Assembly (NCBI GenBank): GCA_021848825.1
Contig: JAJZTQ010000011.1
Span: 1,051 to 65,050 of the forward strand
From: Pseudomonadota bacterium
GTDB lineage: Bacteria > Pseudomonadota > Gammaproteobacteria > Burkholderiales > JABEVD01
Direction: 5' to 3'
Length of the DNA: 64,000 bases
Position numbers and translations under genes: made by a program. The notes beneath the pieces were generated by a model that saw nothing but the letters and a program-made list of their open reading frames with translations, made no database searches and was not told the DNA's origin. Within the stretch, counting starts at the first letter, position 1. Each line of letters starts with the position of its first letter. Positions 7,076 to 25,247 of this stretch are shown piece after piece.

Positions 7076-7534
7076 TCAAGCTACCGCCCGACGCTTGCTC
7101 TCTGCCTGCATCGCAAAGCCAACCGACAACAGCGCCCTTGTCAGGTGATATGCCTCCTGTCGAATCCCGACCAGGCGATTCTCCGTTTCCTCGACTATCT
7201 CCTTCTCCCACTCATGTGCGTACTTGTGCAGCTTGCTGATCGTATAGCCAAACGACCTGGCAGGTTTCGTGATCGCCTCCTTCTTGTCGAAGAATTTTCC
7301 ATCCTTCCCCTTCCCTACCCATGCTACCGCATACCATTCAGACCGTACCGAATTCCCATCCTTGATGCTTCTCAACCTGAGCCTGTTCCGGTTCTGCACA
7401 CCTGGCCTCTCCCCTTCCATGCGTAGCACCGCCGCCCAGTATCGTTCTGCTATACTCTCAACCTCATGGTGCAATTCTTCCATGCGCCTTTCCAGGGCTT
7501 CCTTGATTTCGGGATTTGTTGTCACCGCCCACAT
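7076..7534 (-). CDS. mobI: MobI-like conjugative transfer (oriT-recognition) protein
   Basis: YW...LRLR...S...EW...Y...L...A.EWE..IV..TE..L..IR pattern of IncC/SXT MobI; start ATG 7534 or GTG 7525. Confidence 0.65.
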   Translation of the reverse strand: MWAVTTNPEIKEALERRMEELHHEVESIAERYWAAVLRMEGERPGVQNRNRLRLRSIKDGNSVRSEWYAVAWVGKGKDGKFFDKKEAITKPARSFGYTISKLHKYAHEWEKEIVEETENRLVGIRQEAYHLTRALLSVGFAMQAESKRRAVA

Positions 7535-7643
7535 TCCTCCGTAAAGATTCACAGCTCAATTGGTAGCCTGTCCAGGGTAGCCAATCCCAACACTCTTACT
7601 CCGTTGCAATCTGCCAGCAAATCACAACTATCATTCCAGAATG

Positions 7644-7843
7644 ATCGTTGAGTAACACTAGCATTTTTCCCCGTTATCGTGTTGGTATTCCATGAATTTC
7701 ATCACGATCAGCACGAGTTCAATACCCAAATAATTATCGTTGAGTAATACTAGCATCTTTCCCCGTTATCGTGTCGATACATGGTATCATCGCAATGATA
7801 GTTGAGTAATGCCATTATTTTTCCCCGTTATCGTGTTGGTATT
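7644..7843. repeat. Three ~43-bp imperfect direct repeats upstream of mobI (candidate oriT region)
   Basis: GTTGAGTAA...TTTCCCCGTTATCGTGT starting at 7647, 7739 and 7801. Confidence 0.85.
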
Positions 7844-7934
7844 TCCAAAATTATATCGGCTTGGAAAAAAGCATCCTGGCACCGCATGAATAAAGTGCCA
7901 GGAAAATCGGCCTGATTCCCCAGTGGGAGGGATT

Positions 7935-8150
7935 ATGTTGGTGAAATTCGAGACCAGGAAACGCGGCTATATTTTGCAGCTTGAGCACGATCTGCTCGGC
8001 GATCTTGTGTTGACCCGTTACTGGTACGGACTGCAAAACAACCGGCATGGCTCCTGCATGCAAGTGTTCCTCAACGAGGAAGATGCGCACCGTCAGTTCG
8101 AAAAGGTTGTGCGTATGAGACTGAGAAATGGGTATGAAATCTCTGAATGA
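7935..8150 (+). CDS. Small WGR-domain protein
   Basis: R.Y...L..DL.G...L.R.W pattern; RBS GGGAGG. Confidence 0.6.
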   Translation: MLVKFETRKRGYILQLEHDLLGDLVLTRYWYGLQNNRHGSCMQVFLNEEDAHRQFEKVVRMRLRNGYEISE

Positions 8151-8152
8151 CC

Positions 8153-9130
8153 TCAATGCGCCCCCTCTTTACGGCCCCGGTAATATTGGGCGATATCGCG
8201 CTTGAAAAGACCCCACAGCATCGCCATCGCGCCACCGGCGATAAGCGCGTTTTCGTCCTCTATCGCTGGGCTGATTGCAACCACCGCCTTGTAGTGCTTC
8301 ACCAAATTCTTCACCATGAGCATGCCAACTTCGTCATCGATACCTTCAATCGTGAAATTTGAAGCGCCCGTTACGGCGGAATCCAGCTTCTGCACAACCC
8401 TGTTGCGTCCAACCAGGATCGGCTCAAATACGGCCTTGATGTCGGCGAAGGTCGCGCCATAGAACTCGTACTTCGCCGGCATGTTTACCTTTAGAGCGAG
8501 TATTTCACAGCCCATCCGGCGAAATTCATTGTATCCCCCCATCGCCTTGGTGAGCAAAAACACCGCGTCACGGTCGAAATTACTTTCCCGTGCGATATAG
8601 ACGCCGATCCGGTTGCTCGACTTGACCTTTATCTTGCCATCGCGTCGCTTGATGAAGCAAATGTACCCATCCCGCCATCCCTGGTTGGATGATACGGCAG
8701 CAAGCGCCCCCGCCGCCCCGCCCTCGTAAAGCCAAACATTATCAAGCACCTGGCCATTTGTCAGCAGGTATGCAGCCGACGACTGCTGTGACCGGCGCTC
8801 ACAGTCCAGAAAATACTTGCGAACCGCTCGCCCCTTCTCATTCCTCTCCACCATGGCAAGCTCTTTTGCCATGTCGAGAGTGATGCAGTATTCAACGGAA
8901 CGACGGTCTCCTCCGCGCCCCTCGGTTTGATTCCCCCGTTTGGGGGAGCGCAGTTCGAAGTCCTTTCCTTCCTCGAATCCGTATGCCTTGATCCGATTCT
9001 TGATCCAGTCGGTAAAGTCCTTCCCAACCTCCAGCACGGAATGCAGCTCACGCGCATCCACCACCAGCATTGACACACCCGCGATCTTTCCTTCCATCAC
9101 TGGAACGAGTTGTTTATCAGCTTCGCTCAT
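8153..9130 (-). CDS. AntA/AntB phage antirepressor-family protein
   Basis: VDARELH..L.V.KDF..WI..RI..YGF...DF; Y..TLDMAKELAMVERNEKG..VRKYF. Confidence 0.85.
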   Translation of the reverse strand: MSEADKQLVPVMEGKIAGVSMLVVDARELHSVLEVGKDFTDWIKNRIKAYGFEEGKDFELRSPKRGNQTEGRGGDRRSVEYCITLDMAKELAMVERNEKGRAVRKYFLDCERRSQQSSAAYLLTNGQVLDNVWLYEGGAAGALAAVSSNQGWRDGYICFIKRRDGKIKVKSSNRIGVYIARESNFDRDAVFLLTKAMGGYNEFRRMGCEILALKVNMPAKYEFYGATFADIKAVFEPILVGRNRVVQKLDSAVTGASNFTIEGIDDEVGMLMVKNLVKHYKAVVAISPAIEDENALIAGGAMAMLWGLFKRDIAQYYRGRKEGAH

Positions 9131-23324: not shown

Positions 23325-23409
23325 GTCGCTCTCCTCGAGGGCAGAAGGGCGACCGAATATTGCTCGCGGCCATCCTTCTCCCGCGAATCGTCAAAATACA
23401 AATTGTTAT

Positions 23410-23889
23410 TTAACTTTTCGGGGGGAATACAGCCAGGGTGCGAGGAAAGGAAGGAGCGAACGTGAGAGCGCGAAGGGCCGCGCCGAGGTGGTTGATGAGT
23501 TTATTTTTTTTTGCCGAACTGCGGGGCAAAAATAATTTTGGAAATTTCGGGAGTAGGATTTCGACTGGCAGTGGTGGGGGCGAAGCTAGAAGTTCATCTA
23601 CAACATTTTCAGCTGCAATCGAATCAATATCCTTTTTGATTTTTTTGCGCGCAGCCACCCGGACGGCTTTCTCCACAAATATAGCCGAGAGCCATGCCGC
23701 AAGAATCGAACCGAAAAAAATCTCGAAGGGCAGCGGATTGCCGAAAACCGCAAAAACCATCATAAGCACACCCAAACCAACAATTCCAAACCGCATTTCC
23801 AATTTTTGCGCTTTCAGGAAATGTCGTCCGCTCCACGCCCAATCCTGGGTGGCGGAAAGTCTTTCGAGTGTTTTACGATTAAAGCGCAT
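23410..23889 (-). CDS. Hypothetical membrane protein
   Basis: Two TM segments; AT-rich upstream region. Confidence 0.5.
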   Translation of the reverse strand: MRFNRKTLERLSATQDWAWSGRHFLKAQKLEMRFGIVGLGVLMMVFAVFGNPLPFEIFFGSILAAWLSAIFVEKAVRVAARKKIKKDIDSIAAENVVDELLASPPPLPVEILLPKFPKLFLPRSSAKKNKLINHLGAALRALTFAPSFPRTLAVFPPKS

Positions 23890-24063
23890 TCTACAAATTT
23901 TAGTGCGTTGATGAAAAATGTCAATAAATTATTATTTATTATCATTGAACTATCATTCTTTATCATTCTGCATCATCTAGTATTGTCCGCGACGCCGCTC
24001 TCGCTTTTTGATGCTAAGGTTTAAGGTGTTCAATCACCATCGTGCGTTACTTCTAAACAAGTG

Positions 24064-25101
24064 CTAACCCAGCATCTTCGCCAAATCTTCAACCTTGGGA
24101 TGATAATAGCGTTTCAGCATCTGCAAATCCTTGTGACCGGTGATTCTGGCGAGCATTAGGACATTCGGGATTTTCATGGCTAGACGGCTGGTCGCTTCGT
24201 GCCGAAGATCGTGGAAATGCAGATCGCCCAGAAAACCTTTTCTCGGCTTATTCTCTGCTTCCTTGCAGTCATCCTCGTACTTCTTCAAAGCTCTGGCAAT
24301 AGTGCGCGACCAGGACTGCTTGACAGCATTTGTGGACATTGGAAACACCCTGCCGCCGATTGATCGGGGCATTTCCTTGAGGATGGAAACCGCCTTGGTG
24401 GACAGTGGCACGGTTCGGGAATCACCGTTCTTTGTCTTGGGAAGATGGGCAGAAGGCGCGGAAAGATCGATATTATCCCAAGTCAGGGTGCAAAGCTCAC
24501 CTTGTCGCATAGCAGTTTCAAGGGCGAATTCGATCATGGGACGAAGCCACGGGGTCTGGCAAGCGCCAGTGGCTTCGAACAAGTATTTTTCCTCAAGCGG
24601 TTCAATGCGGCGCTCCCTGGCGTTATCCAGTCGAGGACGGGATACCAGCTTTACAGGGTTATCGTGCAGGTTGATCCCCCATTCACGTCTTGCTTGGTCG
24701 AGCACTTGCTGAAACAGCCCGAGCTCCCTATGGACGGTTGCTGCCGCGACTTTCTTTAGTCGCGAATCACGGTATGCCGCAAAGTCGCTGGAGGTGAGGC
24801 TGGCTGCGGTTTTCTTGGCGATGTCCCTCACGGCCATGGCCTTCAACCGAATCGATTCGGATTCGTACCCCCTGTGGGTAGGCGTTACTTCCTGGATGTA
24901 TCGATCTATGAGTTCTTTGAGCGTTGTCTTCTCCGCTGCTGCTCTGGAAACAAAGACTCCTCTGCCGATCTCGGATTCAAGCGTTGCCGCCCAGAGCTCT
25001 GCATCAGCTTTATTCTCAAACGTCTTTGTTTGGTCAGGGTAGCCCTTTCTCCGAACCCTGGCCCGCCATTGGTAATCCCCCCTTTTTTCGATCTGCGCCA
25101 T
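24064..25101 (-). CDS. int: Tyrosine recombinase/integrase
   Basis: ETAMR.GE, KTKNG..R, FHDLRHEA, GH...ML.RY catalytic residues. Confidence 0.95.
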   Translation of the reverse strand: MAQIEKRGDYQWRARVRRKGYPDQTKTFENKADAELWAATLESEIGRGVFVSRAAAEKTTLKELIDRYIQEVTPTHRGYESESIRLKAMAVRDIAKKTAASLTSSDFAAYRDSRLKKVAAATVHRELGLFQQVLDQARREWGINLHDNPVKLVSRPRLDNARERRIEPLEEKYLFEATGACQTPWLRPMIEFALETAMRQGELCTLTWDNIDLSAPSAHLPKTKNGDSRTVPLSTKAVSILKEMPRSIGGRVFPMSTNAVKQSWSRTIARALKKYEDDCKEAENKPRKGFLGDLHFHDLRHEATSRLAMKIPNVLMLARITGHKDLQMLKRYYHPKVEDLAKMLG

Positions 25102-25196
25102 ACCGCCTCCAAGTATATTAGCGTTAGATTATTGGCCCAATAATGACCCAATGAATGCTAATATAGCTATAATAACGCATAAATACTAGATAGATA

Positions 25197-25247
25197 ACTG
25201 CGTTCGGGACGCAGGAGTCGGAGGTTCGAATCCTCTCACCCCGACCA
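25197..25247 (+). repeat. att site: duplicated 3' half of tRNA-Pro(CGG)
   Basis: ACTGCGTTCGGGACGCAGGAGTCGGAGGTTCGAATCCTCTCACCCCGACCA; the D-arm and 5' acceptor strand are absent. Confidence 0.88.

Follow-up and report, generated by a model that had tools for sequence, protein, structure and literature searches.

An integrated element carrying traN, traH and traG at tRNA-Pro(CGG) of a betaproteobacterium, a likely satellite of IncC-like conjugative elements

The window analysed here is a stretch of 64,000 nucleotides (C38:1051-65050; contig JAJZTQ010000011.1) within the 2.74-Mb, 55-contig genome (GCA_021848825.1; completeness 99.74%) of a bacterium of the order Burkholderiales. Its left part contains most of an element of about 29.8 kb located in the 3' end of tRNA-Pro(CGG), in which traN, traH and traG are accompanied by an integrase gene, a replicon, partition genes, mobI, an flhD-like gene and defence genes. 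In view of its borders, its gene set, the genome-wide lack of other conjugation genes and the relatedness of its tra, mobI and FlhD-like genes to those of complete conjugative elements, all of which are described below, the element is likely to be a non-autonomous integrative mobilizable element, which would parasitise an IncC-like MOBH/F-type plasmid or integrative and conjugative element (ICE) of the pSTJ2 type that is absent from the cell.

Gene families were called by Pfam and NCBIfam scans of the open reading frames (ORFs) of the window, of which 31 were scanned in window 1-29.6 kb. The plasmid pAR060302 was used as the IncC reference, the 67 proteins of Sulfuricystis multivorans pSTJ2 (NZ_AP018720.1) were used as the reference for a betaproteobacterial helper, and a sample of 400 genomes from the order of the host (the G-numbered genomes) served for the order-level survey. 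A sequence-only reading of window 7076-25247 had listed int, repA, repeats, traN, an orf, traH, traG and mobI-like and flhD-like genes, and the genes are present at the positions it gave, the repeats likewise being real; its claim of a partition module belonging to the element also holds, as both ParA and a ribbon-helix-helix (RHH) protein are encoded.

The tra operon and associated secreted proteins

The pore genes traN-orf139-traH-traG constitute one compact operon with gaps of 11-29 bp, led by orf66 and orf74 (21350..21824, minus strand), whereas the helpers examined hold traN and traH-traG in separate operons. The first pore gene, traN (19572..21425, minus strand; TraN 3.2e-48), encodes an adhesin for mating-pair stabilisation, which is 48% identical to TraN of pSTJ2 and 52% to that of L098, a pSTJ2-like metagenome contig; its true start is likely near 21359, at the signal peptide. 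The following orf139 (19123..19542, minus strand) encodes a secreted protein with no family match, which belongs to unnamed clusters only in the Atlas. It shares 49% identity with a pSTJ2 gene and 40% with its counterpart in a second satellite (in genome G147, described below), a homologue is also present in L098, and in that satellite, as in the helper elements, the homologue follows traN.

The product of traH (17692..19104, minus strand; TraH 3.7e-78) is 53-54% identical to two copies from metagenome-assembled genomes (MAGs) and 38% to TraH of pSTJ2. In a quick maximum-likelihood tree of TraH (26 rows, with the partial matches from G093, G157, G197, G268, G311, G322 and G350 and the G087 fragment excluded), the element groups with two MAG copies (SH-aLRT 100), and this group falls within the clade of pSTJ2 (95), while IncC is placed elsewhere on a long branch. 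The last gene, traG (14141..17680, minus strand; TraG_N 1.7e-72), encodes a VirB6-like protein, which shares 70% identity over its N-terminal 481 aa with TraG of the full type IV secretion system (T4SS) in a Gallionellaceae MAG, and 37% identity over 910 residues with TraG of pSTJ2. TraG is the target of entry exclusion in IncC and SXT elements. The 3' part of traG (window 14314-14607) contains a 78-bp unit in 3.8 copies with 95% matches, encoding a C-terminal, proline/alanine-rich tandem repeat of 26 residues.

A further secreted protein is encoded by orf303 (12443..13354, plus strand), which has a homologue in the helper L098 (27% over 235 aa, E 4e-19) that is flanked there by traN and the homologue of orf139, and whose family has 24 representatives among 1.84 billion proteins. 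Both orf139 and orf303 are homologous to genes after traN in L098 and pSTJ2. The position after traN in IncC is described as holding sfx, a TraN-specific surface exclusion gene (PMC11493245); no sequence likeness to Sfx was found for these two genes, and a BLAST comparison of orf303 with Sfx and EexC of IncC gave no match, as did Pfam and PDB. The orf303 product is put forward as a candidate factor for exclusion or for association with the pore. Its identification as a TraT-like exclusion protein was set aside, as the Atlas lead scored 0.89 (bar 0.9), Pfam TraT was found in 0/21 family members and no PDB sequence matched.

Absence of other conjugation genes from the genome

No relaxase, type IV coupling protein (T4CP), TraC, pilin or TraB/K/V was found by Pfam among the 31 ORFs. 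In the whole genome, TraG_N occurs once, and there is no match for TraC_F_IV, the TraG-D_C coupling protein, TraI_2 relaxase, CagE/VirB4 or FlhC. When the 67 pSTJ2 proteins were searched against the genome by tblastn, the conjugation and regulation matches were TraN, TraH, TraG, orf139-like, AcaD-like, hyp71, nuclease, MobI and WGR, all nine on the element, and nothing was found for TraD, TraC, TraB/K/E/L/V/A/F/W/U, TrbC, MobH, FlhC or AcaB. The low-G+C contigs C12, C17, C26, C30 and C34 carry no conjugation genes.

The sequence-only reading had reported the same genes missing from the part it saw, which holds for the window ORFs and, for TraC, coupling protein and MOBH relaxase, for the whole genome. 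It had also considered that a relaxase, a T4CP and a full T4SS in the unseen left part would make this an ordinary self-transmissible ICE; that part contains Thoeris, type II restriction-modification (R-M) and 6A-MBL genes only, and as the genome encodes no relaxase, coupling protein or VirB4/TraC, the element is not self-transmissible. A self-transmissible ICE requires these three together with a full pore, whereas a generic integrative mobilizable element has an integrase, direct repeats at a tRNA gene and incomplete transfer functions, all of which are present here.

Kinship to a betaproteobacterial helper lineage

The closest homologues of TraN, TraH, TraG, orf139, orf303, the FlhD-like protein, MobI, the nuclease, the WGR protein and hyp71 are found in pSTJ2 and its relatives. 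The best plasmid match of TraG by tblastn is pSTJ2, all others among the matches listed being below 25%, and the species-representative genomes contain two close relatives of TraG, one of which is on a Gallionellaceae MAG contig with contiguous traE-K-B-dsbC-V-C-F-H-G. The layout of pSTJ2 is IncC-like and includes the MobH relaxase, TraD, traLEKB-dsbC-VC, traFHG, traWU-trbC-traN, MobI(A/C), AcaB and FlhC. A pSTJ2-type ICE with RepA, MobI, AcaD-like plus FlhC and a full T4SS resides in the G325 chromosome. These elements (pSTJ2, the G325 ICE, L098 and the Gallionellaceae MAG locus L013) encode relaxase, coupling protein and TraC and are complete for conjugation; they represent the candidate helper type and are not satellites. 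In genome G032, from the order of the host, the third contig has TraH starting at the coordinate that it has in pSTJ2 (36544) and TraC inside the traC coordinates of pSTJ2, from which the host is taken to be a betaproteobacterium.

The kinship of the tra, mobI and FlhD-like genes to MOBH/F-type elements bears out the F-type helper proposed before, which can no longer be called unknown, as sequence kinship makes its type identifiable as IncC-like MOBH/F-type plasmids and ICEs of Betaproteobacteria, of the pSTJ2 type. The tra genes of the element have no close kinship to those of IncA/IncC, as identities to pAR060302 are 22% for TraG, 32% for TraH, 28% for TraN and 26% for MobI.

MobI, candidate oriT and neighbouring genes

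The mobI gene (7076..7552, minus strand; Pfam MobI PF19456 5e-23), which confirms the mobI-like gene of the earlier list, encodes a predicted relaxosome adaptor that would recruit a MOBH relaxase. Its plasmid matches are betaproteobacterial and annotated as MobI(A/C) in 8/8 cases, and it is 36% identical to MobI of pSTJ2. Three direct repeats of 45-64 bp (7640..7857) abut the 5' end of mobI and are a candidate oriT, as the oriT of A/C-like elements is described as adjoining mobI at its 5' end (PMC13635750). They do not resemble the repeats that pSTJ2 and G325 have next to mobI. In MobI islands of the MGIVchHai6 type, the oriT next to mobI mimics that of the helper.

Three genes lie next to this region. 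A small WGR-domain protein (7923..8150, plus strand; WGR 1.3e-4) is 49% identical to its pSTJ2 counterpart, an AntA-domain protein (8153-9169, minus strand) is called by Pfam/NCBIfam, and a DUF3799 PD-(D/E)XK exonuclease (9249-10652, minus strand) is 44% identical to the pSTJ2 nuclease. The nuclease gene contains a 177-bp unit in 2.8 copies (window 9810-10307), encoding three copies of a helical motif ('KDELKAAIKAADANSEFRF') ahead of the nuclease domain.

The FlhD-like gene and activator boxes

An orphan FlhD/AcaD-like activator subunit is encoded at 13358..13657 (plus strand), with weak matches that cover the whole protein (Pfam FlhD 3.3e-4, NCBIfam FlhD 3.4e-4). PF05247 is present in 11/11 of its homologue clusters, its sole match among PDB sequences is FlhD (E 0.069), and a Foldseek search with its model (pLDDT 72.6) returned FlhD chains as the top 6 (E 0.4-1.6). 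It is 46% identical to a pSTJ2 gene. Its homologues are located directly before FlhC, behind a divergent helix-turn-helix (HTH) gene, in 3/3 metagenome loci and in the G325 ICE; in pSTJ2, the FlhD-like and FlhC genes are 5.6 kb apart. In the element, the place of FlhC in the helpers is occupied by orf151 (13669..14124, plus strand), a small membrane protein with no FlhC match, and FlhC (PF05280) has no match in the whole genome, the element included. Of the FlhDC-type activator that had been proposed, the FlhD-like gene is therefore confirmed as an orphan FlhD/AcaD homologue, while the complete activator is not, as FlhC is absent genome-wide.

A complex fold of two FlhD-like subunits with FlhC of L098 scored 0.60, against 0.01 for the best of three controls, a result graded as weak support; at least 97% of contacts are shared between runs, and the partner has a pLDDT of 71 or more. 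The mark for such folds is reached by 116/157 solved complexes and 2/215 mismatches, and scores at the mark yet not above 0.60 were given by 18/157 solved complexes and both mismatches. As FlhDC complexes have already been solved, the pass may reflect structures known to the predictor. The dusA-type relatives of SGI1 are described as keeping SgaC and borrowing AcaD from the helper (PMC8409611). Types 1 and 2 of these dusA elements keep SgaC only, whereas the present element shows the reverse, keeping only the FlhD (D) subunit.

In pSTJ2, a box of the type GTGCGCTTTTCG-N5-AGTTTTGG occurs at L009:1827, 8812, 35019 and 38202, L010:6850 and L011:11101, 50-90 bp before acaB, S26-mobH, the lytic transglycosylase/traL operon, traW, parM and one hypothetical gene (1896), and its upstream CGAAAYAGYGCA half is clear in 3 sites. 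The sequences sharing a box word number 4, against 3-4 in shuffles, which is no excess, and the box is defined by the extended alignment and by position. The FlhDC-like activator encoded by the plasmid probably binds at this box. A position weight matrix (PWM) was built from pSTJ2 promoters (7 sites); the box occurs in six promoters of pSTJ2 and one of L098. AcaCD-responsive promoters ahead of xis, rep, traN and traHG are a trait of the SGI1 family, and the IncC motif is available as a figure in PMC4207636. Pairwise comparison of the intergenic regions of the element gave no recurrent 16-mers.

Integrase, replicon and partition genes

The integrase gene int (24064..25101, minus strand; Phage_integrase 7.5e-26, Int_N) reads inward from attR and encodes the sole full tyrosine recombinase of the element, besides which there is one 3' remnant. 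Its counterpart in the G147 satellite is 46% identical. As had been claimed, integrase and target both differ from those of SGI1, the target being tRNA-Pro(CGG).

Next to int is orf159 (23410..23889, minus strand), a predicted membrane protein with no family match, which is followed by orf118 and repA. A near-consensus sigma-70 promoter (23897-23924, minus strand; TTGACA-16-TAAAAT, 11/12) is located just ahead of orf159-orf118-repA. The small HTH-like orf118 (22968..23324, minus strand) overlaps the start of repA, and a word-index search for its homologues returned orf118 itself only. The 'xis-like' gene of the sequence-only reading is not confirmed, as orf118 shows only a sub-threshold match to HTH_17 (E 0.12). 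It resembles S004 of SGI1, an HTH gene ahead of rep, more than a proven excisionase, and is, by this analogy, a candidate S004-like rep partner that may regulate excision or replication.

The replication initiator gene repA (22090..22971, minus strand; RepA_C 2.4e-20) is followed, right after its stop codon, by five GC-rich-then-AT iteron-like repeats of 17-18 bp (21928..22096), whose unit is GGKGGNCCGATTTAACG and variants, and which are a candidate oriV. In SGI1, S004 (HTH_17) is described as co-transcribed with rep (RepA_C), which is closely followed downstream by four GC-rich 17-bp iterons, and a 60% identity of Rep to a Xanthomonas plasmid RepA is reported (PMC7433901). The element shares with this replicon the RepA_C protein and the position and form of the downstream iterons, the HTH_17 component being as faint as stated for orf118.

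Partition is represented by parA (11315-11986, plus strand; Pfam ParA; ParA_partition 2e-40, below cut-off), with a 22-bp tandem repeat at its start (11281-11332, from the repeat scan), and by orf78 (12017-12253, plus strand), a parG-like RHH gene called in the Pfam/NCBIfam scans. The adjacent orf79 (12246-12485, plus strand) is a paralogue of orf66; the two are 51% and 40% identical, respectively, to a 71-aa gene of pSTJ2 (L009:26387-26599).

This replicon raises the alternative that the locus is an integrated small RepA_C/ParA plasmid, which acquired its tra genes by chance and gave them no role in transfer. RepA is 63-68% identical to the RepAs of the best 40 plasmids among the matches listed, Xanthomonas plasmids included, most of which are 10-60 kb in size; trios of RepA, ParA and RHH without tra genes exist in G158, where the three are also adjacent, and on other contigs; and the tra genes of SGI1 are described in a review as dispensable for basic mobilisation (PMC5704250). 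No TraN/H/G was found near the RepAs of 49-65% identity in G044, G065, G158, G318 and G325, RepA was found in 0/7 same-genus genomes, and a search of E. coli genomes with repA DNA gave plasmid RepA only and 0 chromosomal places. Chance acquisition is nevertheless highly improbable, as the same four-gene cassette is intact in two independent elements, and as MobI, the AcaD-like gene and homologues of both post-traN helper genes have been kept, which together form a coherent helper-directed set.

Insertion site and borders

The right border attR (25197..25247, plus strand) is a 51-bp copy of the tRNA-Pro(CGG) 3' end, in which window 25201-25247 represents the 3' 47 nt of the gene and no tRNA is called by ARAGORN. 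The 51-bp repeat has two exact copies genome-wide, the other one being attL, the end of the intact tRNA-Pro(CGG) on contig C9 (C9:33956-34032). The intact gene that had been proposed as a check is thereby located, and the right end of the element is as given before, whereas the left end is beyond 7076, extending to the window start and onto C9. The element thus measures 29,791 bp (3,494 + 26,297 bp), plus the C9-C38 gap.

Downstream of tRNA-Pro, C9 carries, in this order, a 68-residue integrase remnant, ThsB, ThsA, orf234 and a NotI-like restriction endonuclease with its ATG at the contig end, while C38 opens with the matching methylase, the Pfam domain of which is complete, with only the last residues absent. 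C9 and C38 therefore look like two halves of one R-M operon. The join is also supported by synteny, since the IspB-tRNA-Pro neighbourhood is conserved in 3 same-genus genomes, and since in G003, of the same genus, IspB-tRNA-Pro is followed after ~6 kb by PurA-HisS, the right flank of the element in the host genome, on two overlapping contigs. On this gene order, G003 carries the unoccupied site.

The integrase remnant (L001:6218-6424; C9:34205-34363) is a 68-residue C-terminus of a tyrosine integrase, 185 bp past the intact tRNA-Pro, which is like the C-terminal part of the element's own int and has the same position and orientation as a full integrase at the same tRNA in the same-genus genome G005.

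The element is also detected in three runs of a mine drainage metagenome (X1-X3), in which 89-99% of the sampled words of window 23000-27000 are present; X1 and X2 may be the runs from which this DNA came, and a fourth run, X4, contains scattered short pieces only. Word depth in the Logan contigs, which is one figure per contig, to which other strains may contribute, and not a copy number, is 198-230 for element contigs and 474 for the flank contig (25918-27748) in X1, 37-45 and 92 in X2, and 14-34 and 25 in X3. These per-contig depths are only a hint that part of the cells of the population may carry no copy of the element. No usable junction of an empty site or a circle was found in the Logan contigs, which break within the tRNA repeat, and the loose contig ends at 25247-25251 carry different sequences behind a tRNA-Pro, from which nothing follows. 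One contig each in X1, X2 and X3 (depth 7-15) joins window 24933 to 25196, a skip that removes 262 bp with the start of int and its upstream region and that has only 22-51 letters on its short side; this junction may stem from a related integrase beside tRNA-Pro in another organism.

Defence cargo of the left end

Cargo occupies window 1..6823, with small orfs and orf226, and extends on C9 through the restriction endonuclease, orf234, ThsA and ThsB up to tRNA-Pro. It comprises the end of the type II methylase (1-105, minus strand; Pfam and defence annotation), a 6A-MBL pair (1854-3020 and 3020-5266; NCBIfam cap2_3 7.6e-211, 6A-MBL_enzyme 2.5e-119) and an MBL protein of the PDC-M48B type (5268-6146; PADLOC), with Thoeris on C9 represented by ThsA (Macro type) and ThsB, and the contig break dividing the type II R-M pair. 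Four defence modules, namely the 6A-MBL pair, the PDC-M48B-type MBL, the type II R-M system and Thoeris, are thus arranged in a row (window 1854-6146 and L001:6549-9525). Elements of the SGI1 type keep their cargo at the end away from int.

The left end may alternatively be an older defence island, with its decayed integrase beside the tRNA, to which the satellite proper (~7076-25247) was added, the two not moving as one. The placement of the integrase remnant, like that of the full integrase in G005, agrees with such a composite, as do the G+C content, which shifts across the left part from 0.50 to 0.61 and back, and the location of mobI and its repeats exactly at the boundary. A composite is nonetheless unlikely, as there is no third att copy inside the element, even allowing 5 mismatches in 24, and as the G147 satellite likewise holds defence cargo inside its two repeats.

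A second satellite and related islands

The G147 genome, of the same order and another family, contains an island of 21.3 kb (G147:C59 14644-35964) between a 46-bp tRNA-Val fragment with 1 mismatch and the intact tRNA-Val. This island (L078-L079) encodes full-length traN-orf138-traH-traG, an ABC-3C defence system, a Replic_Relax protein and an inward integrase beside the displaced tRNA fragment, and no TraC is found in the G147 genome (91% complete). It resembles the present element in its integrase (46% identical, in the same inward position), in the order of its tra cassette and in the defence cargo inside its repeats, but differs in having Replic_Relax instead of RepA_C and MobI, and in tra proteins that are nearer to those of pSTJ2 than to those of the element. 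No FlhD-like gene was found in it with the queries used.

Across the 400 genomes, TraH is present in 29 and TraC_F_IV in 42 (35 above cut-off). TraH occurs without TraC in G000, G093, G147, G278, G322 and G350, and G157 has a sub-threshold piece of TraC only; two of these genomes were looked at in detail. At G318:C11:515000-552000 (L037-L038), an integrase of 48% identity is ~31 kb from a RepA of 49% identity, with no TraN/H/G between them, and this may be a related island without pore genes. In the complete 2.6-Mb genome of G278, the locus G278:C1:2504000-2511000 (L073-L074) encodes TraD, TraH and TraG homologues of 24-34% identity with no TraC_F_IV match, and is possibly another partial-T4SS element.

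The second island bears on the further alternative that the present element is the decayed, now immobile remnant of a pSTJ2-like ICE, which has lost most of its T4SS, its relaxase and its coupling protein. ICEs of the pSTJ2 type do integrate in chromosomes of this order, as in G325, the element and pSTJ2-type elements have nine gene families in common, no helper and no activator box has been found, and an integrase remnant is present at attL. We regard decay as quite unlikely, because the genes are intact, none of the ORFs being interrupted, because traN and traH-traG form a single fused operon, unlike in the helpers examined, and because the same cassette recurs in G147, in a separately bounded island at another tRNA. 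As identity to the nearest helpers is 37-70%, the element is no recent deletion derivative of them, and its RepA is of the small-plasmid type and only 34% identical to the RepA of the G325 ICE.

Comparison with SGI1 and MobI islands

The likeness to SGI1 was judged via IncC pAR060302 and published descriptions of SGI1 (PMC7433901, PMC8409611 and PMC5389848). Like SGI1, the element is integrative, has TraN, TraH and TraG only of an F-type pore, and carries a RepA_C operon (with an HTH-like orf in the present element), GC-rich iterons and a gene of the FlhDC-type activator; TraN and TraG, usually with TraH, in the absence of the rest of the T4SS are an SGI1 trait. The type of helper would also be shared, namely a MOBH/MPF-F element with MobI, AcaB and FlhC, for which pSTJ2 is the candidate type in the case of the present element.

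The SGI1 family has been delimited with MpsA, TraG, SgaC and TraN as baits, as described in PMC8409611. The atypical tyrosine-recombinase-type relaxase MpsA, mpsB and their oriT are absent from the element, which has MobI instead; the FlhC-like SgaC has no counterpart, a membrane protein following the FlhD-like orf; and the insertion site is tRNA-Pro(CGG), not trmE, dusA or yicC as in the SGI1 family. The element is also unlike SGI1 in its own ParA/RHH genes, in the fusion of traN to traH-traG and in its betaproteobacterial host. TraN/H/G of SGI1 are given as 78/64/37% identical to those of IncC (PMC5389848, Table 1), against 28/32/22% for the element. The term 'SGI1-like' of the sequence-only reading is thus true of the mode of working and does not extend to family membership.

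Islands of the MGIVchHai6, MGIVmi1 and GIAca8LM kind resemble the element in their MobI homologue and presumed adjacent oriT and in borrowing the MOBH relaxase of the helper. MobI islands of the MGIVchHai6 type are described as lacking tra genes, and as islands without T4SS genes they differ from the present element, which has TraN/H/G. The table of a review gives SGI1 with TraG/H/N and GIsul2 with TrbJ/K/L as islands with pore subunits (PMC5704250). The present element combines SGI1-style pore remodelling and replicon with MGI-style MobI mobilisation, on genes of a betaproteobacterial helper lineage.

Proposed mode of action and significance

By analogy with these systems, the element would respond to the entry of a helper, upon which its orphan AcaD-like subunit would pair with the FlhC-like subunit of the helper, or the activator of the helper would act alone. 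The activator would induce excision together with the orf118-repA replicon and the traN-orf139-traH-traG operon, and the excised circle would replicate from the iterons and be partitioned by ParA/RHH. MobI may then bind the repeats upstream of mobI and recruit the MOBH relaxase and coupling protein of the helper, while TraN, TraH and TraG would take the place of the pore subunits of the helper, allowing the element to evade both the surface exclusion and the entry exclusion of the helper. As cargo, Thoeris, R-M and 6A-MBL would pay the host.

Several observations weigh against a satellite operating in this manner. The helper is absent from the genome, so no interaction is visible, and the pSTJ2 box scores at best 11.7 in the element, no higher than background (289 matches of at least 11 in 2.74 Mb); the PWM likewise gives nothing above background in the G147 island, the G325 ICE or L013. 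Absence of the box from the element is, however, to be expected if helper lineages differ in their boxes. The near-consensus promoter before orf159-orf118-repA implies a replicon that would need no activator, unless it is repressed; no excisionase is recognised in the element, orf118 being HTH-like only; and the oriT and oriV are assigned from repeats and position alone. Depth of the element in the metagenome is below that of the flank, not above it, and gives no sign of replication. As to the borders, no end overlap exists between C9, C38 and any other contig, the junction being inferred from the split R-M operon and synteny, and the integrase remnant beside attL implies that the site had other occupants earlier.

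A bolder proposal, which we offer tentatively and consider possible but somewhat doubtful, is that pore-remodelling satellites have an independent, betaproteobacterial origin, having been built from tra genes that belonged to their MOBH/F-type helpers, and that they form a family with the traN-orf139-traH-traG cassette and tRNA-targeting integrases. In the present member, the orphan AcaD-like subunit and the FlhC of the helper would form a hybrid master activator, and orf139 and orf303 would be exclusion or receptor-matching factors of its own. If this is true, the takeover of mating specificity would be fuller than is known for SGI1.

In the literature found, islands carrying pore subunits of a helper are reported from Gammaproteobacteria only, and a full-text search of literature outside subscription journals and supplements yielded no betaproteobacterial example. 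The element unites MobI mobilisation with an SGI1-type replicon and with partition genes of its own, modules that are kept apart in the known families. It is a possible route for the spread of Thoeris, R-M and 6A-MBL systems among mine-drainage bacteria, and pSTJ2, which comes from a cultured Sulfuricystis strain, is a tractable model of the helper. The occurrence of the same strategy in environmental Betaproteobacteria, with genes of another helper lineage, suggests that pore substitution is recurrent and not an oddity of IncC and SGI1.

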